DNA from: an uncultured delta proteobacterium
GTDB taxonomy: Bacteria > Desulfobacterota > Binatia > UBA9968
Assembly (NCBI GenBank): GCA_963840855.1
Contig: CAWJBB010000001.1
Location: 37,013 to 101,012 of the forward strand
Direction: 5' to 3'
Length of the DNA stretch: 64,000 bases
The notes beneath the pieces were generated by a model. That model had not been told where the DNA came from. It saw only the letters and a program-made list of their open reading frames with translations, and ran no database searches. Positions 29,511 through 62,880 of this stretch are shown here, in pieces (within the stretch, counting starts at the first letter, position 1; each line of letters opens with the position of its first letter). A program made the position numbers and the translations under genes.

Positions 29511-29769
29511 GTCCCAGCTCGCCGAGTCGATCTATTCCAGACAATCTGACAGCCCAGTACCGCTTGCCAACGCAAGCCGACGGCGCCGCTCGCTCTGAGT
29601 TCGAGCGAGCGGCGCCATAAGGGACCTTTCGCGCACCTCCCGACCGCTCTCCGGCCGAGCCGCCTGGTACAACAGTGGGTTTTTTATCAAGCAGAAAAGG
29701 AATTGACATCTCTCGCGGTCCTGCGATATGGCTCCGGTCATAGAAAAAGGTGGTTTAAAAATCCTATCC
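29511..29769 (+). mobile_element. ISCR/IS91-like oriIS end, copy 1 (about 259 bp)
   Basis: Last codons RRVDLFQTI*, conserved tail, ends GGTTTAAAAATCCTATCC. Confidence 0.85.
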
Positions 29770-30076
29770 ATAAGTTCATTAATAATCCTCACTGCTTTTT
29801 GTGCCCGATATGACCCTGTCCAATACACGCTGGCAAGTCATTACCCAGTCCCGTTTCCCTTGGGAACAGGAGGCGCTGTCGCGAAAATGTCAGCGATTCT
29901 TAAATAACCCAGAACAACTGAGCCGAGATTTCGAAAATACTTTCGGGATTTCAATGCTAGACTAAGTACATAAGTCAAGATTTGACCCTTCTCCCCTCTG
30001 CCATGCGCGTGTGCACGTTACGGACGATGTCGGGCCAATTCGATTCAGTGATGTCGTTGCGCATCCTTCATCCAGC

Positions 30077-30942
30077 TTATAGGGCATAGGGCAGTTGCTC
30101 GGACACTCCTATGACCGCATCAACCAGAGTAGCTACAGGCTTCACTGCTGGGCCCCGGAGGATGACGCCGCATTCCATTGAAAAATCCCGCGACCATCGG
30201 GTCATGTTCGCTGAGCCGATGTATGCCTTATCATCGTCGGTAAGAAGAATTTTCGCGTGGAACGTCTCGACCGTAGGCGTTCTGAGGCCCGGGTCGTGTG
30301 CGATTGAATAACGAAATATCTTTACCGCGTAGCTGGCAAATTGCGAGCGATGCGCAAGAAGGAGTGCATTCTCCGTCGGGTCACGCCCCCGCACGATCAT
30401 CAGTCGTTCCAGAGACTTCTTGGCTGATGTTTCGAAGAGCTGCGCGATCCATTGCAATCCTTCGCTGTCGACGAAAGGATTAATTATGGCGAGACGGCGT
30501 TCTGCCTGACTAGCCAATTCAATCAGACTATCTTTCGTGTCGAAAAGGCGGGTCCAGGAAAAACCTTGCTTTGGAAGCGTTTCCATCAATCGGGAAGGAT
30601 GGGCGGGCGGGCTCAGAGTGATTTCGACTTGATTGGAGTCCCGTTAGCGATACCGTGCGTAGGCGACTCCGCGCACCGCCGCGTACCGCAATGCGTCGTT
30701 TTTGGAGACGGTGAGGGATATGCCGTCTCCCATTTGGGACAGCAATCCCGCTTCGAGCATCCCCGCAAGCACGGAATCCAGCTTTTGCGAGGTAATGTTC
30801 TGCTGGCGCGCAATATTGTCAAACAGCCCTGTCCGATTGAGAGAGAACTGGCGTTTGCCAAATGAACTAGTAACCCGGCGGCCGCGAGAGGGTCAAAAAG
30901 GACGCCATCAACGATTGCTTCCTCCGGAATCGATGCATTCAT
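30077..30942 (-). CDS. Phospholipase D-family nuclease, DrmC-like (frameshift near 30800)
   Basis: Single HKD motif HAKILLTD...GSANMT; ATGA overlap with the drmB-like stop. Confidence 0.8.
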
Positions 30943-33074
30943 ACGGCAGTTGCCCCGTTTGCTCCAAGTCGAAAAAAACCGGCTAGCGGTGCTCGGTCGG
31001 CATCCCATCCTGGCGGTACGCCGCCGCCGAGAGCGGCGCGGCTGAGCAAATTGTTGCCGGCGATGCAGGCCACTTCGGGAGCCATAATACACGCCGGGCA
31101 TGCGCCCCCACGCTGATCGCAGAGACTTCCCCCGTCGCACTTGAGAGCGCGATCAGTAAGGAGCTGCTCTAACACGGTTAGGCCATGGTTGCGCCACATA
31201 GCGGACAAATTGCCGAGATCAGGCGTCATGCCTCTCCGGTATACGAGAAACGCGAGGTCACTGGGGAATAGATATTCGCCGATAGATCCGTGCTCCAGAC
31301 CGGAGTATTCAACGACCGCATGAGCAAAATGGTGAGCCATCGTATGGAGCAGGAGATAGACGTAATTGGGTACCGAGCGTGGAGTAGGGGGCGTAGCGCG
31401 TTCTCGATAGTCTTCAACAAAACGGCCGAAATCCGCGTACTCTTCAATCAAAAGGCCGCCGAGGCGCATCCCGTCTCGAGGGGGCAGCTGCTGACCCAAG
31501 CCATTTTGGCAAAGCCATTTGATAACTCGCTTTTCGTTGAGGCGGATGTAAAAACCTTCATTTTTCTGTTCAAGGAGATAGATCGGTCGCTTGTTCTTTT
31601 CCACGTAATCAAAGGCGCACAGCCTGACGGGCATCTCCCTATCCTTAACCGTGGTGGAGGGTGTGGAGCTGACGCGCGTATACCCGAAGCTAAATTCGCA
31701 GATGTCCAGTCCCCGAAGAAGGACGAGTTCATCGATTCCGAGCTGCAGCTGGTGCTGTTCAACAGTTGCTGTATATGATTTGCGTTCTTTGGCGTCTGCG
31801 GCATCGATGTCGCAGACTTCGGGATTGAGAACGGATATCGCGGGGAGGCTCGGGTCCGTACCCTGTCTGTCTATGACTTCGGAGCGGAAGGAGGAATGCT
31901 CCACGGCGAGCCGTATCGGATTGTACCGCCTTGCCCATTCCTGGTTGGCTTCGACCTGTGAGGCGAGAGCCTGCGACTGCAGGTGCTGTTTTGCGATGAG
32001 CCCGTCGGCTTCGTAGGCCGCTCGTTTTTCGCTCAACTGTCGTTCCATGGTTTCTTTCATGGCGGGAACTGAAATTACTTTTAAGATTTCCAGAAGATCC
32101 TTGTAGTTCTTCGCCTCATCGTTGCGCCCGTTTTCCCTCAACTGCCTCATGACCTCGTCGTGTGTGAGCGGCGTACCGGGGAAATTGTAGAGTTTCATGA
32201 GTCGGGAGACGAGTTCAGAGCGACGCGCCGCCGTGAGCAGAGTTGTGACCTCAGCATCTCGGAATAGGATGAAGCTGTCGGTCTGGGGGTAAAAGACCGA
32301 GGAAGCCCTGTACGAGACCGGGAGCATGTTCCACTCCTTGGGGAGATTGCCATGCCCGGCATCCATCCCGGGCTTGAGGAGTTCTAGCGTTTCGCGATCC
32401 GCCTGGACGACTTCTTTCGTGGCGAGGCATTGGACACATTGGAAGCGCCAATCGCTGAAGAAAGGAGAAGCTTTGGTCACAAGCTGATATTCTTCGTGGC
32501 CGCAGTTCTGGCATCTTCTTATTTGATTGACCCTGCCATCAGGTGCCATAACCCAACGGTAAGGGCTCAGGCCGCAATAGTTTCCGGACCAGTGGGCATA
32601 GACGACATCCACCTGTCGCCAATTGTGACGACCGGAATCTGCCACTGCGCAATCTGTCCGGTCTTTTGTTTGTGGCCAGCGATGGTGAAGATCCTCCACG
32701 CCGTCAAATTCTGTGAGGCGCCCGCAATCGGAGCAGACAAATACCAAAGGATCCGGTAGAAACCCGATCCGGCTGGGTTGATTGAGGACAAACTTTCCCT
32801 GATCAACGAAAGGCTCGTTCTGGTGATTTAGGAATGCACTGTCGATGCATTGCTCGGGCAGAACAGCAGGTTCCGTACGGCAGTGTGTGGCACGCTGAAA
32901 CCAGCTCTCGACATATTCTGCGAGGTGTTCAAACAACTGCTTTTGGACTGCCGGAGAAGAGGGCGTAACTGGCGCGGATACGGCGACAGAAACGCAACAT
33001 CCGAGTCCGCCCTCATACGTGAAGAGCGCACCGGGAGCGTAGGATGTCGCAATTTGAGTTCTAGATCGATGCAT
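30939..33074 (-). CDS. DUF1998-containing protein, DrmB-like
   Basis: N-terminal RSRTQIATSYAPGA; C-terminal LLHTMAH, EYLF, ACPAC...PEVAC...N.LLSR. Confidence 0.82.
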   Translation of the reverse strand: MHRSRTQIATSYAPGALFTYEGGLGCCVSVAVSAPVTPSSPAVQKQLFEHLAEYVESWFQRATHCRTEPAVLPEQCIDSAFLNHQNEPFVDQGKFVLNQPSRIGFLPDPLVFVCSDCGRLTEFDGVEDLHHRWPQTKDRTDCAVADSGRHNWRQVDVVYAHWSGNYCGLSPYRWVMAPDGRVNQIRRCQNCGHEEYQLVTKASPFFSDWRFQCVQCLATKEVVQADRETLELLKPGMDAGHGNLPKEWNMLPVSYRASSVFYPQTDSFILFRDAEVTTLLTAARRSELVSRLMKLYNFPGTPLTHDEVMRQLRENGRNDEAKNYKDLLEILKVISVPAMKETMERQLSEKRAAYEADGLIAKQHLQSQALASQVEANQEWARRYNPIRLAVEHSSFRSEVIDRQGTDPSLPAISVLNPEVCDIDAADAKERKSYTATVEQHQLQLGIDELVLLRGLDICEFSFGYTRVSSTPSTTVKDREMPVRLCAFDYVEKNKRPIYLLEQKNEGFYIRLNEKRVIKWLCQNGLGQQLPPRDGMRLGGLLIEEYADFGRFVEDYRERATPPTPRSVPNYVYLLLHTMAHHFAHAVVEYSGLEHGSIGEYLFPSDLAFLVYRRGMTPDLGNLSAMWRNHGLTVLEQLLTDRALKCDGGSLCDQRGGACPACIMAPEVACIAGNNLLSRAALGGGVPPGWDADRAPLAGFFRLGANGATAV

Positions 33075-33079
33075 TTGCC

Positions 33080-36000
33080 CTAAGCCTCCCCATCATCGCT
33101 GTCAAGTTCGCCGACGCGGCTCCGTTGCCGTCTTACAATGCGGAGCGCCTCTGCAATCAGCGTCTTCTGATCGGCTCCCCTGATTCTGTGTTTGCCGAAC
33201 GGTCTCGCTGGAATGAATCGCCCCGCCTCGTCAATATCGCGTAGGGACATCATGGGTTTCTGTCCGACGGGAGAGTTCTCCCAATAGTCGCTTAACCTTG
33301 TCGTGGCATTTTCTGTGCGGAATTCGTCTGTCAGGTGCTTGGCAAGATTGCGGATTCGGCCGTCATAGTAGTCCGGGTGCGGCGCGGCGCCCAATCGGCT
33401 AACGCCCCGGCCGGGGACACCAACAGCAAGAACGCAGAATTCCATGAAATCCTTTGCTGCGCCGGGCAGTTGGTTTCCGGTGAAGAGTCGGTTTACGTCA
33501 TTTACCGTTTCGAATCTCGGCGCACGAACCTTGTCCGCGTGTTCCATGAATAGTTTCTGCTCAGCCCAACCACTCAGCCACGCCTGAAAAAGACTAGTCA
33601 GTACACGGTCATGCGCGGTTGCGGCCCACCTTGTGATCGCTGGCGGAGCGATCATGCGTTCCAGGAAACGGTGAAAAACATCGTGGGTTTCGACGATATA
33701 TCTGTCCCGGCGCGCCTGCGGCGTGGGGACGAGGAGACTGAACCCGACATGAGCACGGCCTATGCGGGAAGATGCCTGAATGAACTCTGCGATGTCGTTC
33801 GGCATTCCCGCAAAAAACATCGCGTTAAATTTGTCCACGTCGACCCCGTGGGATATGGCAGACGTTGCGACAATATTTCTCAAGGATTGGTCGAGATCAG
33901 GAAATTCGTCGCCGCCATTGATGCCGCCATCTGCCTGACGCATGATCTCCTGAATTTCCGCAACATCAATGCCTCCGGAAATCAGGCGGGTGTGGAATTG
34001 GGCGATAGTGCGGCCGTGGCGTTTGTGGCCTTTCGCCACTTCCTCCCTGAATGCATCAATGACCTGATCGCCGCCTTTTTTATTGGTCACATAAGTAAGG
34101 GAGATCCGCATCAGATCCAGCAAGGTGAGCAAGACTGCGGGATCTCCTTTCGCATACGCGCTGATCGCCCTCGCATGAAATTGTGTTAGGGGCGTGCCGG
34201 GCGTCAGAGCTTCCAGCAGTCGCTGAGCAACCTGCTCCGTGAGGTTTCCTGTTGACAAGTCCTGCCACATCTCCGTGATCGCGAGGTGATACGCAGCGAG
34301 CACGGCAACCGTCGTGACGGTATGGTTGCGGCCATTCGTCATAATCGACGTGTACAGCCTCATCCAGGGAGCTTCAATTTCCGGGGCCCGGGGGCTGCTG
34401 CCCGCTATCCCCCGGCGCGCAGGATTGGACGGCGTGGCCGGCACCGCATAGAAAGATTTGTAGATTGACGTGCCGGGGTAAGGGAAATGCATATGCCGGC
34501 GCTGATAAAGTGCTCCGAACTGCAGCTGAGGAACGCTGACCGTCGCAGTTGCGGCTATTACCTTGGGAAGGCGGGCTACCTTTGCTCCAAACGGGCTGCG
34601 CGCTACGCGGTCGCCCAGTAGTACCGATCCGCGTGTGAACAACTGCTCCAGCATCGTTTCGAATAGCCCAGCAAAGGTGCCGAGGCTCTCGTCAAGCAAG
34701 TGTGCCTCGTCCTGGACGATGAGGGATGGAAACGGATCGCAGAAGATCTCCCGCCCCTCCTTATAGGCGGGGGCGAGGGCCTCGCACTTGTTTACCGTCG
34801 GGCCTTCCCTCAGCTTTGTCCATGAAGGCATAACAAACCGCCCGGTCGCGGACTCCCTCCATCGCGCGAACCCGAACATTCCCATGACCCTGTTAATCGT
34901 CGCGGGATGCTGGCCGATGAGTGCGAGTTTATCGATTACGCCGAGGAGTACGGCTGGGGCGTGTCGGTATATGTCGCGGTCAACAATCAGGAATGGAAGT
35001 GGTGACCGCGCTGTTTCCAGGTTCCAACGACACTCTGCGTTAAAACAAAAAATACCGATTTCATCTTCGGTTCCTAGGGAGACTCGCCGTAAGCCCGTAT
35101 TCTGCAGGCAGATGGGGCACTTTGGCGTTTTGTTGAAACTATCGTTGACCTCGTTGTAGTCTGCGCCCAAATTGTCATCATTCTGATGCCGCGCGTCTTC
35201 CAGGCGAGGGACAGAAGCCAGGCGAGTATCGTCAGGTCTGTTTGGAGTATTGCCGCTACCGACCCAGAAGCCAATCTCAAAGGGCGCGCCCCCGACAGAT
35301 GCGCTTCGGCGCAGCAATTCGGCGCGCATCAGAATGGAAAGGAGCCTCTGCGCCTGTTGCAGGGTCAGCAATCTCAGCGGGTATCGAATCAACGCGGTAA
35401 CTCCCACGCTTTTGCCGCGGAGGCGATCTAGGAAAAGATTGAAGATGAGCAAGCCAAAGAAGGCTTCTGACTTTCCGCCACCGGTCGGAAAATACAAAAG
35501 AGTAGCGGTCTCTTCATCAAATTCGGGGTCGAACCATGGTGTCTTTGGCGTATTCAGCCATGCGGGAAGCAAGGGTAGGAATGTGAGCGAGAACAAACGT
35601 GAACTGGAATAGGCGCCACTTGTCGATCCCGCGTCCCAGCCCGGCTTCTTGAAATGTTCGATTCAGTAGAAGCCACGCACGGTAAGGCAATGCCTCGCGG
35701 CATTCGGGGTCTGCCCGAAAGCGTTTGAATGCGTGCTCCAGAAGATTTATACCCAGTTCGATTCTGTTGGCTTCGCGCGTATAGTTCGCAATGTCCTGCC
35801 TGAACTTCTCTCGCTCTCGATCTGCCTGATCGGCATCTTCAACGCCGGCGGCCGGGTCCAGATTTTGTTCCTCTGCTCTTATCCAATCTTGGTAAGCCTT
35901 GATGAGAGGACGCATGCTTGCGGGGTCGAAATGTTCAGCGCCCAGAATTGCGAAATCTGTTGGAACGCCCTCGATGTCAGTAGGTACGATCCGGGGCTGC

Positions 36001-37313
36001 TGGTACCGGGGCATCCAGGTTGTTGTGAATCGCAATCTGTCGCCGATGCGGGCCTCGGAAACGCCGCAGTTTATGCCGATCGCAGGATAGGACAAAAAAT
36101 CGCGGAATCTGTAGGAGGGCTCAATGCGATCAAGCTTCAGGGCCCGGTGAGCCTGCGCCGGAAGTTCGATCGCGAGTCCTACCTGATGGATGGAATGGTC
36201 GAACCGGTGACGCATTCGCCTACGCAATTCGTTGCTGTTGTTCTCCAGCATGACCCTCAAGTTGCGGCGGCCGGGGTCACGCAGGTCGCTATCGAATTGG
36301 ACAGTCAGAACAAGGCCGCTCAGATCGGGGCCAAGTTCTCTCGCGGACGGAGCGGTGCTTCTCAGAGTGGAAAGAAAGTTGTTCCACGTTTTCTCTGACC
36401 GGATATGGCTCGGCCTGATATTGGCGGGCCGGTATGCCCAGCTTCGGCCTTCGTCGGTGTCGACCCACGTCGTAATGGCCTTGACCACGGCTTCTCGCAT
36501 TTGTCTGGTCCAAGTCTCTGCCGCGACCTGAACGGCCGCTTCGTCGGATATGTCTGCCGATAGGGGCGCAAGTTCAATGGGAAACCGTTTCCATTTCTGC
36601 GGAATGTCGATCTCCTGGGCTGCCTCGTCCCTGTGAAAAATATAGCGACCCCGCTGGGTGATAAGACGCGCTCCCTCTCCCGCCGTTTCGCCTTGATCGG
36701 AAGAATCGGCCTCCGGCATCCCGGCAGCCTGTTCAGGATTCACGCCGGCGTCAATAACCCAATCGTCCGACGACACCTCAACGCCGTGGGTGCCCAACAG
36801 CTCACGGTAGATCTGTTGTTGAAGGTCACGCCTTGGACGTCTCTGATCGGCGGGTTTGGTTTCTTCTGCTGCAATGGCAGCCGCCATCGGTTCTTTCATC
36901 GCCTCGCGAATGGCCGCTTCCAGGTCTCTGCGCAGAGGTAGATTCGGAAACAGTTCAAGTTCCGGCTTCGTAAGCTCGTCCCAGGTCGGCAAGGTTCGTA
37001 CGTAGATCGAGAATGAAACGGTGATTACCAGATTTCCCCTGGCCGAGGCGGCAATCTGGCAATCGAGACCGTGCGCGCTGATATGAATATCCGAGGTCTC
37101 GTCCTGCTGTCCGCCTTCTTCAAATCGCGGCAATAGAAATCCTGAGACAAATCTTAGAGAAGGTTTCGCTCCGAAGATCGTTTCGCCTTCCGGGCCGGCT
37201 CCGCTTGCCCGCTGCCAGGTAAGATTGAGAAGAGCGTCAACGATTCCCTCCTTGGCATCGTCGAGATTCGCGGCGATCTCGGCCGGGAGTGATTTCAGGT
37301 CAATGACTTTCAT
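33080..37313 (-). CDS. SF2 helicase, DrmA-like, about 1410 aa (frameshift near 35540)
   Basis: WRLFQ, FPTGGGKSEA, YPLRLLTLQQ, QDEAHL, ATAT, SHGVDV, QASSRIGR across ORFs 35517-37313 and 33080-35596. Confidence 0.85.
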
Positions 37314-39955
37314 CGGGACTTCCTTCAGGATCGTTCGAGATTACAGCAACCAGATGCTGTTCAGCAGTTTCATATATCCGCCAGACTTCCTGACGGTGCG
37401 CTTCAGGAAGACGGGAAACTGCCCCGTACGGGTCAATCAGTACGCCCATGAAAACCTGGTGAAATGCGTTGCCGCTGCGTATGCGCATTGAGCGTGTCCA
37501 GAAAATGCCCCAGTCCCAGTAGTGCTGTGCCACATCGGCCGCAATTCCGAGTGCCTTCATAAAACATAGATAGTGGCGGCGGTCGCGCGGAGCCTGTGGC
37601 CTCACTTCGTCACGAGGAACTTCAACCAGATCAGCGACGTCGATCCATTGTCTAATCGACTGTGGCCCCGGCAACGACAGGGATGGATCGATTTTCATGA
37701 TCGAATTGCGAAGAGCGTCAGCTTTGGCGGCCAGATCCTGCCCCGGCAGCTTAGAAGCCGCTTCCGCAACGGTCTTGTGATACAACGTGAGAACCTCCGG
37801 CGCAGTAGCGCCGAGGTGCAGTTTCTGCCGCGCAGCATCTATAAAATCCGGACTAAATACGCATATCTGATCGCCCTGTCTGAGATCTTTCGCAAGCCGT
37901 CGGGAAAAGGGCTGCAAGGCATCTGGATCATAGACCGCTAATTCCGTGCCGTCGAGAGCTCTGATTTGAACATCACCGGATGTGCGAATGATACGTGTCG
38001 GGCCAGCTCCTGGTGCGTGGGGTCCTGTCAGGTCGATGATGCCGACGCGTGGCGGCAGGAGGACGGTATCAAGATCGGGAATATCAATTGTGTGGCCGCT
38101 GAGCGCCTTCTGAAGGCTCTCCTGCACGATCAGTAAATTCCACTCAATGGGAGCGACGCCGTCAAGCTGCAGAAAAGGCCTCGGCGCGTTGAAGGATCTG
38201 TTTTGCGCGCGCAAGGTGGCAGAGCACGGTGACCTTGGGTGGAAGGGTAGGGTGAGTCAAAGTCTGTAGAAAATGGTCCGCATACGGCTCAACAAAGAGA
38301 ATCTGCTGGCAGGGGCCCTGAAGGCTGCTGGCGCGTTCAAGCTCTTCACTCACTTCCTTGTTATCGACAAGAATGATTTCTCGCCCGAGTTTTGTTCGTA
38401 CATCTGCCAGCGTGCTTTCATTCTCGACGCGCCACTCTGCAAAGGAGCGGATAAGGTCGCTCGAAAAAGCGACAATCGATCGCAACGACTGCTTTGCCAG
38501 TCTGGAAACGGCCTCGTCGAACAAACGAGTACCGGGATTGTAGGTTGCAGCGACTGAGCAGAGTTTGTCGTAAGTGTCGAGGAAAGCTGCGAGCTGCGCG
38601 TGATTGGTGCCTGCGGTGCCGAGTTTGATGACAGAGGTGATTTGTCCTCTGGGGGTCAAGTGGTCAAAACGAGACCCTACAGTCTGAAGTTCGTATCCTT
38701 GATAGTTATCCGCAAGAAAAGTCACGAATTGTTGCGGCGGACCGGGGAGGCCGATCAGGTTTTGCAGGGCAATGAGGGCGGCCGTTACCGATGAAGCGAC
38801 AACGTGGTCGCCGGCATCCAGAAGAGAGCGTTTCAGCTTCAGGCCAAAATCAACGAAGTTGAGAAGATCTGCACCGTAGACTTCTGCGGACAGTTCATCC
38901 AGAGAACCAGGAGCCGCAGTTTCCAAATCCAGGATGCCTGTGCTGACGTTGAGGATCAGGCGTGAACGGGCGGGATGTTTAGGGGATGTTGCAATGCCTC
39001 GACGCGCGTCGTAATCATTCACAACCTTCCATCTGAGAGTTTGCAGAACGAAGACTTCGTCGGTCACTGCAAGGGCAGGGGGAGACGCGGCACCGTAGAG
39101 TGTTTCAACTGCACCGAAGAGCTTTGAAACGGCTTCCCGCCAATTTCCCCCGAGCGCATTCCGTGATCGGCGGGTGAGATCAATAAGAATGATATTCGGA
39201 CGCCTGCCGCCATTAATGGGGTCCAGGCCCGCCTTGCGAAACAGCTCTGTCGAGACCGCGTCTGGATGTACACCAAAGAGAAAAAACGGCGTTTGGGATG
39301 AATCGTTCGCAGCATTAATATGTTCGCTGCGTTCGTTGATCCATGTGTAATGCCGCAAACGCTGTAGAAAATGATCGCTATAGTCGCCCACAGTGGCGGC
39401 TTGAATCCCCGCCTGCGGAATGATCTCAAACAGAGTGGGATGCATCAGAGTTGGATCGCGCGCAAGGGCTCTGTGTCGCCGGTTACCCTCCTCCCCGGTG
39501 GAAAGGTGCTTGAGGCTATGAAGTGCCATCAGATAACCAAATGCGGGGTGGCGTGTGCCTTTCGTGTGGACTCGATTCAAAGCGGCTAGGGTGGCTTGGA
39601 CAAGTTGTTCTCTGTCGACCAAGAGTGTCCTCTGTGTGCCTCCGCTGTTGCGGTTCCAAGGAAAGAATAGGGTTGCAAGGGTCTGCGAGTCACACGCGGC
39701 TATCCGGGCAAGCACGGCCAGTGCATGGAATACGGCGATACCCTCGATCGGCTGCGGCCATAACAGGATTGCTTCGCTTTTTCCCTCGGCGAGAACGCGG
39801 TCGAAAGCAGTGAGCACCTCCTTCGCGGTCGGACCCGTATCGCAGCATTGGCTGGATTCGTTGCGACGGCGCAGCCCTATTCGGCGACCTTGGCCTGGCT
39901 CCGCCATACCAATACGTTCGAAACTCTCAGGCGCGGGTTCTTGACTGCCCGGCAT
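37300..39955 (-). CDS. Large hypothetical protein, about 885 aa, tentatively DrmE-like (frameshift near 38175)
   Basis: ORFs 38162-39955 and 37300-38214 join at QRAEAF/LQLDG in a T run; lies between the MTase and helicase. Confidence 0.55.
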
Positions 39956-39960
39956 CGTTC

Positions 39961-48407: not shown

Positions 48408-48455
48408 CGTTACCCTCCCGCCAGTTGTCGCAACGTTTCTGCTTCAAATACCTCT

Positions 48456-49192: not shown

Positions 49193-49424
49193 AGAACGTC
49201 AACGAGATGGCCAAGCTTGCCCCCGTTTGATCCTTGGGTCTCTACGGAGCATCGCGTGCAACAGGCCGTCGTTAGTGAGGGTTAGTTAGTAGACTTAGGC
49301 AAGTCTGACACGGCTGAGAACGGATGTTAACTGTCAACAAAAGATTTGACCCATACGTTTTCAACAGGTTACGACGGGTAAGCGACGGGGCGAAGAAATA
49401 AGGCAATACGAAAGCCAGAGACCC

Positions 49425-50402: not shown

Positions 50403-50686
50403 ATGTCAGCAATTCATTGAACGTATGGTAGCCGCCCTATTATTTAAATATGATTTTGTTCGACAATGAACAACTTGGTCTTTCCGAGACATAATTTTAA
50501 CGCGCTAACATGACCGCTCATTCCCGCATCGGATTCAGAATAAGTCAAGCCATGAGGGTCTACCATGGGAATTTAGCAGGTAGCAGGATTTAAAAGAATC
50601 CTGTAAAGGAGTACCGGGTTGGACCCGTGCAATGAATTGATTCAGCGAGATAAGATTGCAGAATAGGAGCGACCCCAAAGCTTAGC

Positions 50687-51442: not shown

Positions 51443-51550
51443 AGAGTGCAAAAAGCAACTTCCTATCATCTGTCGGACAAATGTCGAGCGATGTATTCTA
51501 AAGAGTAGTTTATCTATCGGTAACCAAGTCGGTTAAGGAGGTCCGGAATA

Positions 51551-55360: not shown

Positions 55361-55984
55361 CCGCTGGAGTTCATGGAGCGCCTGGCGGCCCTGGTGCCGC
55401 GGCCGCGCTTACATCTGATCCGCTTCCATGGCGTTTTGGCGCCCAACGCCAAGGTGCGCAGTAAAATCGTTCCCGCTCCGGCAGAGCGTGCCACCGAACC
55501 CCCGACCGATCACGCCCAAGGTCAGGGAGAAACGCCGCGCATGAGTTGGGCCCGACTGCTCAAAAGGGTCTTCGACATCGACATCGAATACTGCCCGAAC
55601 TGCGGCGGCGCTTTGAAGATCATCGCCTGTCCTGAGCCTCGTCGAAGGGCCGCCATCGAAGATCCGCCGGTGATCATCAACATCCTCAGCCATCTCGGCC
55701 TACGGACCCGCGCCCCGCCCCGTGCCCCAGCTCGCCGAGTCGATCTATTCCAGACAATCTGAGGACCCGAAAACCGCTTGCCAACGCAAGCCGACGGCGC
55801 CGCTCACTCTGAGTGCGAGCGAGCGGTGCGAAAAGGGACATTTCGCGCACCTCCCGACCGCTCTCCGGCCGAGCCGGAGCCGTACAACAGCGGGTTTTCT
55901 ATCAAGCAGAAAAGGAATTGACAGCTCTCGCGGTTCTGCGATATGACGCCGGTCATAGAAAAAGGTCGTTTAAAAAGACTATCC
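55361..55984 (+). mobile_element. ISCR/IS91-like oriIS end, copy 6 (about 624 bp)
   Basis: Starts PLEFMERLAALVP; ends CGTTTAAAAAGACTATCC. Confidence 0.88.
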
Positions 55985-56239
55985 ATGAGCGGTCCGAAGT
56001 GATCGGCGCCGGCAAAGAGCGGGAGCGGGTTCGGGTACGGGAGGCGATCAGCTATGTGGGGCGCCATCATACGGAGTTGTCTGTGGTTGATTTGGCCGAC
56101 AGCCTTGGAGTGGATCCGACATGCGTGAGTCGGAGCGTGGGGCGGGTGGAGCGGCGACTGGCAGCGGATCGAGGGTTGAAGAAAATGGTGGCGGATATTA
56201 GCGCCGCGGTAGAGAATAGCAAATATCAGGCTTGACCCC
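55985..56239 (+). pseudogene. 3' remnant of a RAYT/Y1 transposase with its right end
   Basis: HTH-like tail resembling the end of 58940-59896, finishing ...YQA* within CAGGCTTGACCCC. Confidence 0.75.
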
Positions 56240-56386: not shown

Positions 56387-58744
56387 TCACCTGGCGGAAG
56401 ACGGATCCTTTTCGCATTGCCCGCGTCCCACTCCGGTATTCAACTCGTTCACCAAACGATTCAAAAGGGACAGACCGGGCTCGGTATCGAGCAACGCGGA
56501 CAGCCGAGCCTGGGATGTCGTTGAAAGCGTCCAGCCGAGCGGGACACCTTCTGTCCCCGTCATGGCAAAGTGATAGTAAGAGCCGCCAAGTAAACAGGTG
56601 CGCTCGCGCAGTAGCTCGGCAGTGCCAATCCCGTTTACGCTTCTGGCGTGCATCGTGACGTCGATCGCGCTCGGCTCGCCGAAACCGACAGAGCTGTTCC
56701 GAAAAAAATCTGGAAGTCCCGTAAGGAGCTCCTCCATTTTTCGGAACGGGGCGATTGTTTCAATAAGCGTCTTCTGGAAAGCACTCGTTGCGATCGGCCG
56801 GGGTGCCGGCATCGTTGGCGACGGTGGTGGCGGCGGAGAGCAACGATCGTTGATTGGCTTGGGATCCGCATCGAGCCTGTTGAATAGACACCCCATCTCT
56901 TTGGAAGGGTCATTGGTGATCTGGATAACAACAAGCTTGATACTGTTCTGAAGATCGACGCCGCCCCCATCTTTATCGGCCAACCCATCGAGCAAATCGA
57001 GAATGGTTGCGGCCCCGTAGTTGTCATAGAAGCCCCCGTCTGCAATCCCCTCCAGCCTCCGGCAGCCCGCCGACTTGGGCTGCCGCAGCCAGCCCCAGTC
57101 CGATACAAGCGGAAACCGGGCGCTGGTGCCAATCGCCGCGCTGAGTGGAGGATCGATTTCTTCGACGAGGTTAAGGCGGCAGGGTGTTCGCAGCCGTATC
57201 CAGTTGGGGTCCGTAATCCTCACGTCGGCGGACATCACGCGCTCGCCTCTTACCGATGTCGCATTGAGCAAGAGCAGCGGATGGCTGCCGCCGTCCCGCC
57301 ACAGCGACGCCATCGACGCCGAGAAAACGTCAGCGACCGGACTCTGCTCTCCCACGGTGTTGCGCCACGCGTGCTCCCAACCAAGCTCAAGCGCCTCGTT
57401 CCGGTACGGAAATATCGGCACGAACGCATTGGCCGGAAGTCCCGCCAAAGTCGCGCCGAGCATTGCAGCCAGGAAATCTTGCCGGTGGAATGTCCTAACA
57501 CAAGGCTCGAACGGCCCACCGACGGCTGCGCACTTCAGCGCAGGAGCGGAGATCGGGTCGTTCGAAGCGGCGGCCGAGAGCAGGCCATAAAAAATGCCAA
57601 GGCCAAGCGAGCCGCCCGATACGCCGCTCGCAGCGAACAGCTTGGCTCGCAAATTCGGCACGCGGTCCATGAGGCGGGTAAGTGTCAACGAGGTCCAGTA
57701 GCTTGCCCTTATTCCGCCGCCGGCCGCCGCCACGAGAACAAGCTGCGGCTTCGGTTCGGTCTGATTCCCGCGCCACGCTTGATAAGACATCTTCAGTGTC
57801 GGCAGCGGGCCGGAGTCCGGTCGAGCCTCATGCCGCACATAATCCAGAAAAGGATATCCGCGGAACAAGACGACGCCGGCCTTGATGGCGCCGAACGCCA
57901 GCCAGGACAGTGCGACAACACAAAGAAAGGTGGCCTGGGCGCGATATCCGGTCCGCGAGAGCGCAAAAAAGAAAAGAATCCAGAGCGAGATCAAGGCAAT
58001 CAGCGAGAACGACGAACCGAGCGTCGTCCCGAATTTCCCGGGAAAGTACGCGATGGCCAGCAGGAAGGCGAAGGTAACGCCGCCGACGATATAGCTGGCG
58101 GACATCTGCTGGCGCTCGAAAACAATGAGAATGAGCGCCGCGACCATTCCACCGATCATCGCGCCAATGGGCCAAACACTTGAGAAGAGCCAGATGGATT
58201 CGCCCCAGGATTCGCCAAGGGATCCCGCAAAAAACGCCAGACCGATCGAAATGAAGCCGGTCAGCCCGGCCCATTTCGGGGAAAGCTCAAATATTTTCTC
58301 CGTAGGCACGTCTCTAACGACGTGAAAAACAAGAAACACGACAAGAGCCATGGCGGCGGAAAGCCCCAAAAAGAGAGCGAAACCTGATCCCTCATCCCGC
58401 GCCAATTGAACAAGGTCGCGCCCCTGCTCGGTTTTCGTAAGGACCAATATGACGACCGTCGTCAGCGCAACGATCACCGACAAAACGAGCCGCGCACGAG
58501 AACGCATCGAGAGAAGCCGATCCACCAGCCACTTGGCCGCCGAGAGCAGCCACCTCAATGGCGGCTTCGAGAGCAGCCACGCCACCGGCCGCTTGAGCTT
58601 TAAGAGCAGCGAACCTAACAGCCGCTTGAGCTTTGATAGGAGCCAGACGACAGGCCATGCGAGCAAAACGAAGGGAACCAGCAAAATGATGAAGAACCGA
58701 CGAACCCGATTTGAATCTCGTATCGAAGCAGACGTCTCGGCCAT
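56387..58744 (-). CDS. Multi-pass membrane patatin-like phospholipase
   Basis: GGGIRA, GVSGGS, DGGFYDN; N-terminal TM helices. Confidence 0.85.
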   Translation of the reverse strand: MAETSASIRDSNRVRRFFIILLVPFVLLAWPVVWLLSKLKRLLGSLLLKLKRPVAWLLSKPPLRWLLSAAKWLVDRLLSMRSRARLVLSVIVALTTVVILVLTKTEQGRDLVQLARDEGSGFALFLGLSAAMALVVFLVFHVVRDVPTEKIFELSPKWAGLTGFISIGLAFFAGSLGESWGESIWLFSSVWPIGAMIGGMVAALILIVFERQQMSASYIVGGVTFAFLLAIAYFPGKFGTTLGSSFSLIALISLWILFFFALSRTGYRAQATFLCVVALSWLAFGAIKAGVVLFRGYPFLDYVRHEARPDSGPLPTLKMSYQAWRGNQTEPKPQLVLVAAAGGGIRASYWTSLTLTRLMDRVPNLRAKLFAASGVSGGSLGLGIFYGLLSAAASNDPISAPALKCAAVGGPFEPCVRTFHRQDFLAAMLGATLAGLPANAFVPIFPYRNEALELGWEHAWRNTVGEQSPVADVFSASMASLWRDGGSHPLLLLNATSVRGERVMSADVRITDPNWIRLRTPCRLNLVEEIDPPLSAAIGTSARFPLVSDWGWLRQPKSAGCRRLEGIADGGFYDNYGAATILDLLDGLADKDGGGVDLQNSIKLVVIQITNDPSKEMGCLFNRLDADPKPINDRCSPPPPPSPTMPAPRPIATSAFQKTLIETIAPFRKMEELLTGLPDFFRNSSVGFGEPSAIDVTMHARSVNGIGTAELLRERTCLLGGSYYHFAMTGTEGVPLGWTLSTTSQARLSALLDTEPGLSLLNRLVNELNTGVGRGQCEKDPSSAR

Positions 58745-58878: not shown

Positions 58879-59899
58879 GGGTCAGGCTTGCATAAATGAA
58901 TCTATTGCGTTTGGTCCCGGATCGGTATAGTTTCTTTGCATGGCCCGACCCATGCGGATCGAATACCCCGGAGCGGTATATCATGTTATTTGCCGGGGCA
59001 ATAACCGCCAGCCGATCTTCCGCGACGACGCCGATCGAAAGCGATACCTGGAGAAACTGTCCCTTTACTGCCAGGAGAAAAAGGTCGATCTGTTATCTTA
59101 CTGCCTGCTCTCCAATCACGTCCATCTGCTGGTGGAGACGGCGCAGGGGAATCTTTCTAAGATGATGCAAGCTTTTCAGACCAGTTACACGGTGTATTTC
59201 AACAGGCGCCACGGACGAACCGGCCATGTATTCGAGCAGCGCTACAAGGCCATGGTGGTCGATAAGGATAATTATCTCCTCCAGGTGAGCCGTTACATCC
59301 ATTTAAATCCGGTCAGCGCCAGGATAGTGGAGCGGCCCCAGGATTTCCGGTGGAGCAGTTACGGTTCGTATCTGAAAGGAAAAGGGCTGACGGGGCTAAA
59401 AACGGAAAGTGTGTTGGCGTATTTCAGCGGATCGAGAAGCCGACAGCTTCGGCAATACCGGGATTACGTGGAGGGTGATGGATCGGATAAGACCCGGAAT
59501 CCCGCGCCGGAGGTGATCAAGCAAATATTTATAGGTGATGACGATTTCGCAGAGGCAACAAGACGGAAAGGGAATGGATCGTCGGTGTACGAGGGGCATT
59601 ATTCATTTCGGCAGATGGTGGAAGCGGTGAGCGCCGTGATGGGCGCAGAGCGGGAGGAGATCCGGCGGCCCCAAAGGAGCGAGAGAGTCCAGAGAAGTCG
59701 GGAGATATTATGCTACATTGCCCGGCGCCATGGGGAAGTGGGACTCCAGGAGCTGGCTCAATTTCTCCAGGCCAAGGAGCTATCCACGGCGAGTCACGCC
59801 GTGAGGCGGGCGGAGAAAAGGCTCAAAGAGGATTCGGGCTTTCGTCGTCGGGTCGAGCAGGTTCTGAAGCGGCTCGATTCAACCATGCAAGCCTGACCC
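58879..59899 (+). mobile_element. RAYT/Y1-transposase element with perfect 15-bp terminal inverted repeats
   Basis: GGGTCAGGCTTGCAT (58879-58893) and ATGCAAGCCTGACCC (59885-59899). Confidence 0.85.
58940..59896 (+). CDS. REP-associated-type tyrosine (HUH, Y1) transposase with C-terminal HTH
   Basis: YHVICRGN, NHVHLL, RYIHLNP, WSSY. Confidence 0.92.
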   Translation: MARPMRIEYPGAVYHVICRGNNRQPIFRDDADRKRYLEKLSLYCQEKKVDLLSYCLLSNHVHLLVETAQGNLSKMMQAFQTSYTVYFNRRHGRTGHVFEQRYKAMVVDKDNYLLQVSRYIHLNPVSARIVERPQDFRWSSYGSYLKGKGLTGLKTESVLAYFSGSRSRQLRQYRDYVEGDGSDKTRNPAPEVIKQIFIGDDDFAEATRRKGNGSSVYEGHYSFRQMVEAVSAVMGAEREEIRRPQRSERVQRSREILCYIARRHGEVGLQELAQFLQAKELSTASHAVRRAEKRLKEDSGFRRRVEQVLKRLDSTMQA

Positions 59900-59910: not shown

Positions 59911-60279
59911 CTGCCCGAACTGCGGCCGTGCCTTGAAGATCATCGCCGCGATCGAAGATTCGCCGGTGATCGGCAAGATCCTCAGCCATCTCGGCCTACC
60001 GACCCGCGCCCGGCCGCGTGCGCCAGCTCGCCGAGTCGATCTATTCCAGACAATCTGAGGAGCCGAAAACCGCTTGCCAACACAAGCCGACGGCGCCGCT
60101 CGCTCTGAGTTCGAGCGAGCGGCGCCATAAGGGACCTTTCGCGCACCTCCCGACCGCTCTCCGGCCGAGCCGCCTGGTACAACAGTGGGTTTTTCGTCAA
60201 GCAGAAAAGGAATTGACATCTCTTCCGGTCCTGCGATATGGCTCCGGTCATAGAAAAAGGTGGTTTAAAAATCCTATCC
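59911..60279 (+). mobile_element. ISCR/IS91-like oriIS end, copy 7 (about 369 bp)
   Basis: Starts CPNCG; ends GGTTTAAAAATCCTATCC. Confidence 0.88.
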
Positions 60280-60309
60280 ATATAAACGGATTTTCTTAGA
60301 GTAAAGTGC

Positions 60310-61377
60310 ATGACGGATTTTCGGTATAATATCCTCACAAATTTGCGCATCTATCCAGGTATTGTGGAAGACCCGGACCGCATTGAAACTCTCAACGATG
60401 TCCTCAATGAACTCAGCACATTGGGGTTTGGCAAGCTGGTACAAAACTTTTGCACACAGCCCGATCCTGAACGAGCACGCGACTTTCTATTTGAAATCTG
60501 GATTTGTCAGATGCTCCGCCGTAATCACGACGTGCAGGATTTGCAATATGAGCCACCAGAGGCCAAGAACCCGCCAGATTTTGGTTTTCGCTTACACGGC
60601 GTTAATTTCGCCAAGCAAGTGAAACGGCTCCACAATGTTACGAATGAACAAACAAAGTTTCTCTTCGAACGGGAGTGTCGAAGGCATCTCTCCGATATGC
60701 CGAAGCCATGGTTCATAAACTTCTGGGTTTCTGACCATTTCACGCCACAGCACTTGAATTCGTTCTTTGCTTATCTGAAGCGATCTATTGACCAATTTTC
60801 TTGCGTGACGACCTTGAAAACTCTTTTGGGAGAACCACAATATTCTTGGAAACAGAACGACGAGACACTGGTACAGTTCTCCTTTACTGAAAAGCGTGGC
60901 AAAGAACCTGGTATTTTTCCTGGAGTAATTTCTTTGATGGGGACCGAGAGTGGTCTAATGGGGGCTATAGATACAGGCGCCTTTCGTAGAAGCGTTCAGC
61001 GGCTCCTAAGAAAATCGCGCAAGAGCCTGACACGACCTGTATCCTCCACCCAAGCGAATCTGCTCGTTATGCAATCTGTGCACTTCCTGTTTGCAGACAA
61101 GACGATCCTTGATGCACTATATGGTGATGAGGTTATAGGATTTCACAGAAAAAAAGAGCCAAAGAGTTTTCGTAAGCCAAACGGCTTATTTCGCCCCAAC
61201 AAATTCTCCAACATCTGTGGTCTGATCTTGGTGCCTTCACAATTATGGGCGTTCAGTGAATGGTTCGAAGGCGATTATTTTCTGCACCCGTCTCATATTG
61301 AAAACATCCGATGTCATCCAAAACCATTTCACGAGATGATGTTTGTTCGCTCACGGATCGAGTTATCGGCTGATTGA
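60310..61377 (+). CDS. Hypothetical protein, possibly restriction-endonuclease-like fold
   Basis: 355-aa ORF; LFEI...PPDF...KQVK resembles a PD-(D/E)XK variant. Confidence 0.5.
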   Translation: MTDFRYNILTNLRIYPGIVEDPDRIETLNDVLNELSTLGFGKLVQNFCTQPDPERARDFLFEIWICQMLRRNHDVQDLQYEPPEAKNPPDFGFRLHGVNFAKQVKRLHNVTNEQTKFLFERECRRHLSDMPKPWFINFWVSDHFTPQHLNSFFAYLKRSIDQFSCVTTLKTLLGEPQYSWKQNDETLVQFSFTEKRGKEPGIFPGVISLMGTESGLMGAIDTGAFRRSVQRLLRKSRKSLTRPVSSTQANLLVMQSVHFLFADKTILDALYGDEVIGFHRKKEPKSFRKPNGLFRPNKFSNICGLILVPSQLWAFSEWFEGDYFLHPSHIENIRCHPKPFHEMMFVRSRIELSAD

Positions 61378-61452
61378 ATTGGTCTATCGAGCAAAAGCTC
61401 GGGGGTTTTGCAGAAACCGCTAATACTGCCGTGGAGGGGAGAAAAGGAAAGG

Positions 61453-61989
61453 ATGAAATACTTTGCCTACGGCTCTAATATGTTGGAAGAGCGGCTACAA
61501 GCACCTAATCGCGTACCCACCGCAAAATTTTTAAGTATAGCTAGCGTTCGACGATACAAACTACAGTTTCACAAGAACAGTGATGACCAGTCAGGTAAGT
61601 GTAACATTGTCAGAACCAACTCTGAGGAGGACGTGGTTTACGGCGTTGTATTCAAAATTCCCCATGACCAGTTAGACGCCCTGGATCGTGCGGAGGGTGT
61701 CGGCCACGGATACCACCATGACAACATCTCAATTCGACTCGCTGATAACACAGAGACTATGCTAACGTACGTAGCTGACTCGAACCGCATTGATAACACT
61801 TTGTCTCCTTACGAATGGTATCACAAACTTGTGGTCGCAGGTGCTGAGCAACACCATCTGCCCGAGCACCACATTAAAGAGTTACGAGCAGTTCCGTACA
61901 TCCCAGACCCTAAAGTAAACAGACCCACAAAACTTGAAGCGGAAGTAGCATTGAAAGTATACTACAGCAAAAACAAGATCCGCAACTAA
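61453..61989 (+). CDS. Gamma-glutamylcyclotransferase family protein
   Basis: MKYFAYGSNM, VYGVVF, LDRAEG. Confidence 0.88.
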   Translation: MKYFAYGSNMLEERLQAPNRVPTAKFLSIASVRRYKLQFHKNSDDQSGKCNIVRTNSEEDVVYGVVFKIPHDQLDALDRAEGVGHGYHHDNISIRLADNTETMLTYVADSNRIDNTLSPYEWYHKLVVAGAEQHHLPEHHIKELRAVPYIPDPKVNRPTKLEAEVALKVYYSKNKIRN

Positions 61990-62010
61990 CTGATTTCAAA
62001 TTGTGGCCAC

Positions 62011-62880
62011 GTGCTGAGCTTGCAAAGCCTGCCGAGCGCAGCCAGGCCGTCCACCCCAGAGCTGCGCGTCAACGCGCACGGCTTTAGCCTCCATGCGGCG
62101 ATGCGCTGGCGCGCCGATCAGCGCAAGGAACTAGAGCAGCTCTGCCGCTATATCACCCGGCCGGCCATCGCCAACGAACGGCTCAAGCGTAATCGCGCCG
62201 GGCAAGTCGTGCTGCAACTAAAGAGTCCCTACAAAGACGGCACCACCCATATCGTCATGGAGCCGCTAGAGTTCATGGAGCGCCTGGCGGCCCTGGTGCC
62301 GCGGCCGCGCTTACATCTGATTCGCTTCCATGGCGTACTGGCGCCCAACGCGAAGTTGCGCAGTAAAATCGTTCCCACTTCGGCAGAGCGTGCCACCGAG
62401 CCCCCGACCGACACGCCCAAGGTCAGGGAGAAACGCCGCGCATGAGTTGGGCCCGACTGCTCAAACGGGTCTTCGACATCGACATCGAACACTGCCCGAA
62501 CTGCGGCGGCGCTTTGAAGATCATCGCCGCCCCTTCGACGCGCTCACGACAGGCATCGAAGATCCGCCGGTGATCATCAAGATCCTCAGCCATCTCGGCC
62601 TACCGACCCGCGCCCCACCGCGTGCGCCGGCTCGTCGAGTCGATCTATTCCAGACAATCTGACAGCCCAATACCGCTTGCCAACGCAAGCCGACGGCGCC
62701 GCCCGCTCTGAGTGCGAGCGAGCAGCTAGATAAAGGAGGTTTCGCGCGTCTCGACCGCTCTCCGGCCGAGCCGCCTGGTACAACAGTGGGGTTTTTATCA
62801 AGCAGAAAAGGAATTGACATCTCTCCCGGTCCCGCGATATGGCTCCGGTCATAGAAAAAGGTGGTTTAAAAATCCTATCC
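62011..62880 (+). mobile_element. ISCR/IS91-like oriIS end, copy 8 (about 870 bp, longest)
   Basis: VLSLQSLP...GFSLHAA...LEQLCRYITRP; ends GGTTTAAAAATCCTATCC. Confidence 0.88.

Follow-up and report, generated by a model that had tools for sequence, protein, structure and literature searches.

Transposition of insertion sequences of the IS91 and IS801 type starts at the ori (right) end of the element and runs through the transposase gene to ter; a missed stop at ter results in upstream DNA being carried along. In resistance regions, 5′-truncated, co-oriented copies of ISCR elements, which belong to the IS91 family, flank the cargo genes. To our knowledge, ISCR elements have been studied almost only as carriers of resistance genes on clinical plasmids, and how they move is still debated. 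Here we describe an array of eight ISCR oriIS-end remnants, separating unrelated cargo genes, in the genome of an uncultured delta proteobacterium (Desulfobacterota; Binatia; UBA9968; GenBank assembly GCA_963840855.1). The whole stretch of DNA that was analysed, referred to below as the window, comprises 64,000 nucleotides (nt) of contig CAWJBB010000001.1 (positions 37,013 to 101,012; in our notation G000:C1:37013-101012, where G000 is the source genome), and its right edge is the end of the contig.

IS91 is inserted from a bottom-strand single-stranded circle, which serves as the intermediate; the tetranucleotide of the target, located beside oriIS, is CTTG or GTTC for IS91, IS801 and IS1294 (PMC13181058). 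A study of IS801 (PMC3189936) reports right-end fragments of 229, 360 and 679 nt, each starting with a target-like tetranucleotide, in 26% of the trapped events. The rolling-circle mechanism of ISCR elements is described in PMC9376610 as experimentally undemonstrated. For ISCR28, capture of armA by means of a "sandwich" made up of two successive oriIS has been proposed (Yuan et al. 2024, as described in PMC12772301). Helitrons (PMC4778049) are comparable in being HUH rolling-circle elements in which faulty termination carries host DNA along and non-autonomous copies predominate. They transduce DNA past the 3′ terminator, whereas IS91-type elements carry DNA beyond ter and keep a constant ori end.

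The array described here resembles ISCR-flanked resistance regions and the ISCR28 sandwich, and differs from them in its scale (seven modules), the lack of an intact copy, its cargo and its environmental host. The best explanation, to which we assign a probability of about 0.55, is that of a hypervariable accessory and defence island to which several ISCR-borne acquisitions gave rise. Exchange at the ISCR ends that preserves orientation, chiefly through homologous recombination within the ori core, would have reshuffled the island, which was later trimmed and is now non-autonomous.

Structure of the array

A repeat search of the window revealed a 63-nt motif present eight times between 29.7 and 62.9 kb, with longer repeat families located 5′ of every copy. 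Comparison of the two longest copies with the window, using blastn, yielded exactly eight matches, all on the plus strand and showing 79-93% identity. The boundaries of the copies were fixed by alignment to a longer paralogue on contig C40 of the same genome. The eight remnants (260-874 bp) extend over 33.4 kb (29514-62884). They are located, in order, at positions 29514-29773 (remnant 1; 260 bp, comprising the non-coding tail and oriIS only, with no coding match), 42651-43136 (remnant 2; 486 bp, with transposase residues ~403-485, tail and oriIS), 44350-44914 (remnant 3; 565 bp), 48456-49196 (remnant 4; 741 bp), 50687-51446 (remnant 5; 760 bp), 55361-55988 (remnant 6; 628 bp), 59911-60283 (remnant 7; 373 bp) and 62011-62884 (remnant 8; the longest, 874 bp, starting at residue ~280). 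The spacers between them are 12877, 1213, 3541, 1490, 3914, 3922 and 1727 bp in length. A first-pass annotation of this DNA, made from the sequence alone, had listed eight non-identical plus-strand copies of 259, 484, 563, 737, 756, 624, 369 and 870 bp; these lengths, as well as its spacer lengths, agree with ours within a few bases.

All eight copies share a constant right end, ...TTGACA..N..GCGATATGGCTCCGG.CATAGAAAAAGGT(G/C)GTTTAAA....CTAT(C/A)C. They terminate with AAAAAGGT(G/C)GTTTAAA..(3-4 nt)..CTAT(C/A)C, followed by A(T/G)(A/G), and the common end combined with differing start points, as originally noticed, was found in every one of them. The left junctions are abrupt, each lying at its own point of the transposase gene. 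The left ends of the eight remnants (CCAG, TCCG, CGCT, CTAT, TGCG, CCGC, CTGC and GTGC) have no common motif, and no motif is shared by the flanks preceding them.

Using a 486-aa (amino acid) full-length relative as the tblastn query, the copies were found to start at residues 280, 305, 326, 363, 384, 403 and 439, with copy 1 consisting of the tail alone. Because the earliest start is at residue 280 and the HUH motif sits near residue 190, none of the eight copies keeps HUH, the zinc domain or upstream DNA capable of containing terIS, in line with the first-pass annotation. The translated copies read ...LCRYITRPAIANERLKRN...HLIRFHGVLAPNAKLR...CPNCGG...LSHLGLPTR..., which corresponds to the C-terminal part of an IS91-family transposase. 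The single-tyrosine motif LCRYITRP, previously ascribed to the longest copies, is indeed readable (LCRYITRPAIANERL) in copies 5 and 8, both of which are frameshifted, and copy 4 begins inside the RYITRP motif. The coding part is followed by a non-coding tail, the ori terminus being located ~240 nt 3′ of the transposase stop. The window contains 8 of the 37 ori ends of the genome, with 0.17 expected (Poisson P ~2e-11). The probability of a single orientation for all eight copies is 1/128, and this figure of the first-pass annotation is upheld.

Assignment of the repeats to the ISCR group

The Pfam model Y2_Tnp (PF04986) matches four of the eight copies, from the middle to the end of the model (positions 84-181 or less), and a tblastn search with a full-length relative revealed a coding match in seven. 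Relatives of the transposase are encoded at 78 loci of other genomes, and several of them are full-length (~490-510 aa). The full-length proteins contain a zinc-binding N-terminus, an HUH motif (NLNIHLHCLVLDG) and one RYITRP tyrosine motif; one of them matches both Zn_Tnp_IS91 and Y2_Tnp (116 bits). The score of a full-length relative on the NCBIfam model ISCR_clade_Ia was 507 bits, which is below the cut-off of the model (925), and a full-length relative shares ~50% identity, over ~90% of its length, with the plasmid-encoded transposases of ISCR1 and ISVsa3 (ISCR2). In most of 13 full-length relatives, the stop codon is followed by 230-330 nt of non-coding DNA and then by AAAAGGnCGTTTnAAnTTCCTATnC. 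The ISCR1 plasmid record contains, ~230 nt after the stop, the sequence AAAAAGGTGGTTTATACTTCCTATACCC, which nearly equals the terminal 28 nt of the copies.

Because of this transposase homology and the matching layout of the tail in the relatives and in ISCR1, the repeats are remnants of the oriIS end of an ISCR-type element, and not as elements themselves, which agrees with the identity initially proposed for them. No copy has a zinc-binding N-terminus, an HUH motif and a catalytic tyrosine in one open frame, as an autonomous element does, and none has a terIS: everything 5′ of residue 280 is gone and the left junctions are unique sequence.

Inspection of the flanks of 116 ori ends revealed A at position 1 in 103 cases (a position preset by the search pattern for the metagenome loci), T or G at position 2 in 77 and 33 cases, respectively, and A at position 3 in 57. 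This weak preference (A, then T/G, then A) differs from the CTTG or GTTC of IS91, IS801 and IS1294. The best-conserved part of the tail is the ori core. RNAalifold predicted no pairs in 12 ori tails, hence no shared secondary structure, and an Rfam search of the window at the gathering threshold gave no match. The presence of an outward-directed sigma-70 promoter in the tail was considered and rejected: TTGACA is conserved, but the -10 sequence is poor in the copies of the window, and a consensus scan found none. In the tails of the relatives, our reading of the alignment places TATAGT at the right spacing from TTGACA.

Comparison with described systems

The array shares with ISCR1 and ISCR2 the transposase family, the oriIS terminus, the single RYxxRP tyrosine motif and the location of cargo directly by the ori end. 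In contrast to them, it comprises eight consecutive, diverged, chromosomal remnants, none of which is full-length; its cargo consists of defence genes and genes without a known family instead of resistance genes, in an environmental host, and its clade is distinct (507 bits versus the NCBIfam cut-off of 925). The miniature derivatives of IS801 are similar in their constant ori end, variable 5′ truncation and non-autonomous character, and multi-copy mini-versions also occur here (see below). They start, however, with a target-like or left-end-like tetranucleotide, unlike the eight left junctions of the array, and the work on IS801 does not describe its fragments as ordered arrays around cargo. 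In the armA sandwich, as described in PMC12772301, the cargo also lies between two co-oriented oriIS, one of them from a remnant; the ISCR28 element is present there, whereas the array has seven sandwiches and the genome no intact element.

By analogy, integron cassette arrays and arrays of IS26 translocatable units are also composed of co-oriented repeats separating single-function modules, many without a known function, in a strain-specific region. Unlike in integrons, no integrase is present in or beside the array (Phage_integrase matches on the contig are found only at window positions 5279-9568, and none in 28.7-64 kb), and the only recurrent boundaries found here are ISCR ends, i.e. a transposon end of variable length and not a fixed site. 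A DDE transposase is lacking as well. The region 5279-9568 contains five Phage_integrase matches within 4.3 kb (one short and three full on the plus strand, one on the minus strand), and these recombinases may constitute an element of the recombinase-in-trio type. This tyrosine recombinase cluster is located ~20 kb to the left of the array, from which it is separated by syntenic core genes. Within the texts covered by a full-text literature search, no arrays of ISCR remnants with defence cargo are described.

Absence of a full-length transposase gene

The array is non-autonomous in the assembled genome. The tblastn matches in this genome leave the N-terminal 127 residues of the transposase uncovered, and 40 relatives belonging to the same order likewise lack a full-length transposase gene; fragments are present in seven of them (the longest covering residues 76-287). 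The transposase that the first-pass annotation assumed to act in trans thus has no full-length representative in this assembly or in these relatives. A similar picture emerged from the ori ends preceded by 1900 nt of DNA or more among those listed from the source genome, the G002, G003 and L011 loci and the metagenome matches (74 ends): 42 are not accompanied by transposase coding sequence, in 25 the coding part starts at residue 300 or later, in 7 at residues 100-299, and in none before residue 100. Elsewhere in the genome (G000:C35:32585-34500), a gene adjoining that of a tyrosine recombinase encodes an IS91-type transposase of the classical kind, characterized by the two-tyrosine motif YLGRYTHR; this transposase represents a different branch from the ISCR remnants of the array.

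Distribution of ori ends in the genome, relatives and metagenomes

Ori ends of the source genome were counted with a profile of the last 125 nt. The 37 ends are located on 14 of the 93 contigs and form further clusters on C50 (five in 17 kb) and C40 (three in 10 kb), with smaller groups on C52, C27, C2 and C35. The same-genus genomes G002 and G003 contain arrays of their own, with co-oriented remnants around other genes, mostly lacking Pfam domains but also encoding ABC substrate-binding proteins and an amidohydrolase. Metagenome loci were collected by an exact scan for the ori motif, which matched at least 120 stretches, and 80 loci were taken. The motif is specific to the sub-branch, so that full-length relatives elsewhere, whose ends differ slightly, would escape the scan. 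Where the relatives G009 and G015 enter the counts, a minor share of the data comes from unpublished genomes. Orphan ori ends proved to be common and clustered in same-genus genomes and in contigs from soil, bog and sediment metagenomes. Two viral contigs that matched the ori pattern were dismissed, as they show no ISCR homology.

All 7 pairs of adjacent ends (within 15 kb of one another) in the window are co-oriented, as are all 7 in the G002, G003 and L011 loci, 8 of the 11 elsewhere in the genome and 15 of the 21 in the metagenome loci listed, which gives 30 of the 39 listed pairs outside the window. Replichore or strand bias was rejected as the cause of this co-orientation. Orientation shows no link to the sign of the local GC skew (plus-strand ends: 17 negative, 8 positive; minus-strand ends: 7 positive, 5 negative), and clusters occur on both sides, although the test is weak (skews of 0.00-0.05, unplaced contigs). 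The copies are clustered, and the genome-wide scatter with replichore-dependent orientation that the first-pass annotation had named as contrary evidence was not observed.

At locus L013 (positions 10001-14967), which comes from another genus, a full-length ISCR is followed, ~200 bp past its ori, by a co-oriented 5′-truncated copy, and by another 3 kb further on. In one or more other lineages, an intact element thus has a small array on its downstream side.

Could the array be an artefact of assembly? The source assembly (94% completeness, 8% contamination, genome G+C content of 56.2%) is divided into 93 contigs, the window lies at a contig end, contigs C90 and C65 begin within a remnant, and some copies share 40-80-nt stretches of 100% identity, through which metagenome-derived contigs might have been chained across a collapsed repeat, making the array or its order unreal. 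The copies, however, diverge by 4-25%, and no two of them agree in their left junction or their flanks. Hopping between repeats would not by itself produce co-orientation or a spacing of 1-13 kb, and G002, G003 and the metagenome contigs (with two or three co-oriented ends) are independent assemblies with the same architecture. We consider a misassembly highly improbable.

To the left of the array, conserved synteny stops at a DUF748 gene (26948-28666). In DNA searches with both halves of the window, the cargo was absent from the 40 relatives, with the exception of a REP-associated tyrosine transposase (RAYT)-like gene, a dehydrogenase gene, a hydrolase gene and short repeats; at the DNA level, the DISARM-like module of the first spacer was not detected in any of 89 further family genomes. 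A tblastn search with 24 window proteins against the collected loci and the rest of the genome gave matches only to the RAYT-like gene, the dehydrogenase, the DUF748 gene and weak paralogues. The neighbourhoods of the dehydrogenase and hydrolase orthologues show no synteny.

Six public sequencing runs contain just 5-7% of the sampled words. Four runs were assembled as contigs, in which the remnants occur at high depth together with few short pieces of cargo. Neither a circle nor an ori-to-ori joint was callable in these runs, where remnant-remnant joints are uninformative because of the repeats, a result that has no bearing on the existence of such molecules.

Among the matches listed, remnant lengths vary continuously from ~43 to ~1377 nt (140 ends). 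Three apparent groups of recurrent truncation points were rejected: the "86 nt" group marks the place where BLAST loses diverged tails, the "487 nt" group has no exact common start, and the "122 nt" group is really a mini-element of ~160 nt. This mini-element is present in at least five copies with 93-95% identity (G000: C50:82023-82183, C50:98063-98224, C50:99310-99469, C27:165732-165893 and C65:416-576) and joins ~40 nt of different sequence to the terminal ~120 nt of the ISCR tail. Its structure suggests an ori-end derivative, similar to a miniature inverted-repeat transposable element, that may have multiplied.

Other repeats were also noted. A 2.7-kb segment is duplicated at 99.9% identity (G000:C2:92815-95506 and C85:48382-51074), with a third copy (87%) on C27, each copy being located within a few kb of an ISCR ori end. 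A sequence of ~1 kb at window positions 17188-18190, probably a further insertion sequence, is repeated on C41, C34, C30 and C69 and in numerous relatives (78-85% identity).

Origin of the array

The copies differ overall by 4-25%. Pairwise differences amount to 9.0%, 5.3% and 19.2% at codon positions 1, 2 and 3, respectively, and to 21.5% in the tail. Since the differences concentrate at codon position 3, most of the divergence built up under selection on a working transposase, and not in place. The remnants accordingly represent several distinct functional lineages, rather than duplication and decay in place, and the frameshifts are later damage. The copies are also mosaic: blocks of 40 alignment columns with 100% identity lie beside blocks with 70-80%, and copies 4 and 8 show ~4% differences in the coding part but 23% in the tail. 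This mosaicism indicates that recombination or gene conversion took place among ISCR sequences, before or after their arrival.

The right junction of remnant 6 is informative in another respect. The ori end is directly followed by the C-terminal 76 codons of a RAYT/DnaA_C-type gene (55990-56217, plus strand), whose first ~194 codons are found nowhere in the window. Because the other half of the gene is missing, this junction is therefore not a simple insertion. Besides any orderly stacking of cargo as proposed in the first-pass annotation, rearrangement has therefore occurred.

It may be asked whether the cargo was ever linked to the remnants. A full-length ISCR, since lost or unassembled, could have given rise to 5′-truncated, one-ended products that inserted independently, dead on arrival, between the genes of a pre-existing island. 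The right-end fragments of IS801 (26% of trapped events; PMC3189936) provide a precedent, and the continuous range of remnant lengths and the presence of a ~160-nt mini-version at five or more places in the genome are in keeping with it. In contrast to the IS801 miniatures, the left ends in the array lack a target-like tetranucleotide. The weak A, T/G, A preference beside the ori is what a target site would show, and the ATAA that follows CTATCC at the dehydrogenase gene resembles native upstream DNA; the right flank of remnant 6, on the other hand, is half a gene, with no other half to the left. One remnant per module, repeated seven times with all copies co-oriented and with GC skew not followed, is not expected of random insertion. 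Furthermore, the copies come from several diverged functional lineages, yet the array is not shared within the genus, and the metagenome loci listed as having the same ori-flank junction differ in remnant length and in the DNA to the left. We therefore regard independent insertion as a rather unlikely origin of the array.

Such metagenome loci form five pairs among the matches listed (L131/L155, L136/L150, L133/L187, L134/L190 and L123/L129), in which the ori core and the right flank are 94-98% identical, the remnants differ in length and the DNA to the left is unrelated. In L136/L150 and L133/L187, the 60-85 nt of tail nearest the flank are nearly identical, and the distal tail is only ~65% identical. 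Because similarity falls 60-85 nt into the tail, the exchange point in these two pairs lies inside the conserved ori core, and not at the nick after CTAT(C/A)C. The pair L131/L155 also shares the junction between cargo and remnant to the right of the common block, and diverges ~80 nt into that remnant. If cargo and an ori end moved together by classical one-ended transposition, pairs with the same left DNA and remnant and another right flank would be expected; none was present among the listed pairs, which is weak evidence given the short contigs.

These pairs bear on the proposal of integron-like stacking made in the first-pass annotation. In its most explicit form, a transposase supplied in trans nicks two co-oriented oris, frees the cargo and remnant as a single-stranded circle and re-inserts it beside another ori, thus forming an active cassette platform without attC sites. 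The seven successive cargo sandwiches between co-oriented ori ends, and the ori core being the most conserved part of the tail, are compatible with such a process, as are the listed pairs with a common ori core and right flank but differing left DNA, including the additional cargo-remnant junction of L131/L155. The breakpoints, however, lie 60-85 nt within the tail and not at the nick, so that homologous exchange fits better than a site-specific reaction. The single-stranded circle of IS91 (PMC13181058) and the two-oriIS sandwich proposed for ISCR28 and armA (Yuan et al. 2024, as described in PMC12772301) offer parallels, whereas ISCR rolling-circle movement itself is termed undemonstrated in PMC9376610. 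A full-length transposase is absent from the genome, from the 40 relatives and from the surroundings of the 74 ori ends listed. Moreover, no cassette was met twice, and some remnants elsewhere lack an ori or are internally deleted. An active platform of this kind is thus improbable.

Homologous recombination at resident ISCR ends remains our preferred explanation, and the following sequence of events may be envisaged. The chromosomal, hypervariable island, containing accessory and defence genes, would extend from ~28.7 kb to the contig end. The right border of each module is formed by the 3′ end of a 5′-truncated, frameshifted transposase gene and an intact ~240-nt tail with oriIS. The modules may have come at different times with, or beside, different functional ISCR lineages, and new DNA would have been added or swapped beside the resident ends by orientation-keeping reactions. 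Homologous recombination within the ori core, of which ~85 nt are conserved, is the likeliest of these; a second route may have been provided by rolling-circle events directed by the ori, for as long as a transposase was available in trans. The 5′ parts would have been cut back by deletions and other mobile elements. At present, the array is probably a largely fossil, non-autonomous scaffold that may still be able to recombine. We infer both the order of these events and the role of recombination in this array, and a past rolling-circle step would be analogous to those of IS91 and IS801.

Several observations weigh against this explanation. No module of the array was found in another context among the 40 relatives, the collected loci and 89 family genomes, so that movement is unsupported. 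The evidence of recombination comes from other loci, located on short contigs of metagenomes, and from a mosaicism that may be older than the insertions. The junctions between cargo and truncated transposase genes have no common motif and no tetranucleotide resembling the ori flank, and their origin is explained by none of the readings considered. In experiments with IS801, 5′-truncated right-end fragments were able to arise and insert alone (PMC3189936), a process that would require no linkage to cargo. The assembly is fragmented (93 contigs, 8% contamination, window at a contig end), and a full-length element may be unassembled; the order of the modules through near-identical stretches of the tails is unverifiable. 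Finally, the comparison of orientation with GC skew is weakened by the low skews (0.00-0.05) and the unplaced contigs.

Cargo genes

The seven spacers hold unrelated genes, with G+C contents ranging from 45.8 to 61.2%, as compared with 56.2% for the genome. Spacer 1 (29774-42650) contains an operon on the minus strand that we call DISARM-like on the basis of matches to Pfam, PADLOC and NCBIfam models, the last being below the respective cut-offs (DrmB_fam, 54 versus 240; DrmAS, 48 versus 950). Its predicted genes encode (i) a PLD/DrmC-like protein (30077-30589), (ii) a DrmB-like protein (30939-33074), (iii) a DrmA-like helicase (33080-35596), (iv) a 598-aa DrmA-N-like protein (35517-37313), (v) two proteins without a known family (37300-38214 and 38162-39955) and (vi) an N6-adenine methylase (39961-41760). 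The PADLOC scores were 278 bits for DrmA, 47 for DrmB, 37 for DrmC and 339 for MTase_II, and the Pfam matches comprise helicase, PLD and Eco57I/N6_Mtase domains. Besides the genes of these four, the spacer has three with no match.

The single gene of spacer 2 (43344-44201, plus strand) encodes an alpha/beta hydrolase (Pfam), with orthologues (64-68% aa identity) in three other genera, in unrelated contexts. A 3′ fragment resembling a tRNA or a transfer-messenger RNA (tmRNA), with the T-arm and acceptor (44290-44349, minus strand), adjoins the left junction of remnant 3. ARAGORN found no whole tRNA beside this remnant, only a weak match to a tmRNA 3′ end (12.8 bits), and no tRNA is present at the corresponding place in the relatives carrying the hydrolase gene. 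Such a fragment is the kind of scar left at integration sites of genomic islands.

Spacer 3 (44915-48455) comprises three genes (44974-45372 and 45758-46792 on the plus strand, 47037-48407 on the minus strand), which have no family match in Pfam, PADLOC or NCBIfam and for which Atlas names no family. Spacer 4 contains a gene (49425-50402, minus strand) for a 325-aa protein with pentapeptide repeats and a TIR domain (Pfam Pentapeptide, 114 bits; TIR_2, 81 bits), which also gave PADLOC matches to TIR families. A contig of public run X3 joins position 49564 to 50566, skipping 1001 bp; most of this gene is therefore absent in a related strain.

The gene of spacer 5 (51890-54913, plus strand) encodes a 1007-aa protein with a trypsin-like protease domain, a STAND/AAA NTPase domain and 44-aa repeats (Pfam; PADLOC matches to the protease domain). 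About nine tandem 132-nt units at 53725-54909, corresponding to the 44-aa repeats (weak PPR-type matches), form the C-terminal half of the protein.

Besides the truncated gene next to remnant 6, a fragment of a paralogue of the RAYT-like gene, spacer 6 contains a gene for a 785-aa protein without a known family (56387-58744, minus strand), for which a patatin-like character (Atlas) is a lead only, and a RAYT-like gene with a DnaA_C helix-turn-helix (58879-59899, plus strand). The latter, recognized by Pfam and by NCBIfam NF047646 (81.7 bits; cut-off 80), is bracketed by 15-bp inverted repeats and ends 11 bp before remnant 7. A third RAYT-like copy (G000:C85:55597-56532) abuts an ISCR fragment without an ori, and contigs of three public runs carry both ends of the RAYT-like element without the gene body.

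Spacer 7 (60310-61989, plus strand; G+C content of 45.8%) comprises a gene for a 355-aa protein without a known family (60310-61377) and an AIG2/GGACT-like gene (61408-61989). A Zn-dependent alcohol dehydrogenase gene (62906-63970, plus strand) starts 22 bp past the ori end of remnant 8, and the contig ends 30 bp after it. The dehydrogenase shows 83-85% identity to that of two other genera, and the homology begins right at the ori end.

The cargo had been described in the first-pass annotation as rich in defence-like domains. This is correct for spacers 1, 4 and 5 (three of the seven), but not for spacers 2, 3, 6 and 7, in which PADLOC found no match to a defence family.

Significance

The array represents the architecture of ISCR resistance regions on a larger scale, on the chromosome of an environmental bacterium, with phage-defence genes and unassigned genes as its cargo. 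If the improbable cassette mechanism were true, integron-like arrays, composed of defence and other accessory genes, would be assembled and exchanged among soil and sediment bacteria without an integrase or attC sites. The orphan ori ends, of which metagenomes contain thousands, would then serve as docking sites, with the transposase brought in, for instance, on an incoming element. Should the ends still be in use, either by recombination or by a visiting transposase, they would provide a general route by which accessory and defence genes gather at one locus, and the arrays would constitute a natural data set on ISCR gene capture. If they are only scars, they would still explain part of the structure of defence islands and flag many unannotated cargo genes.

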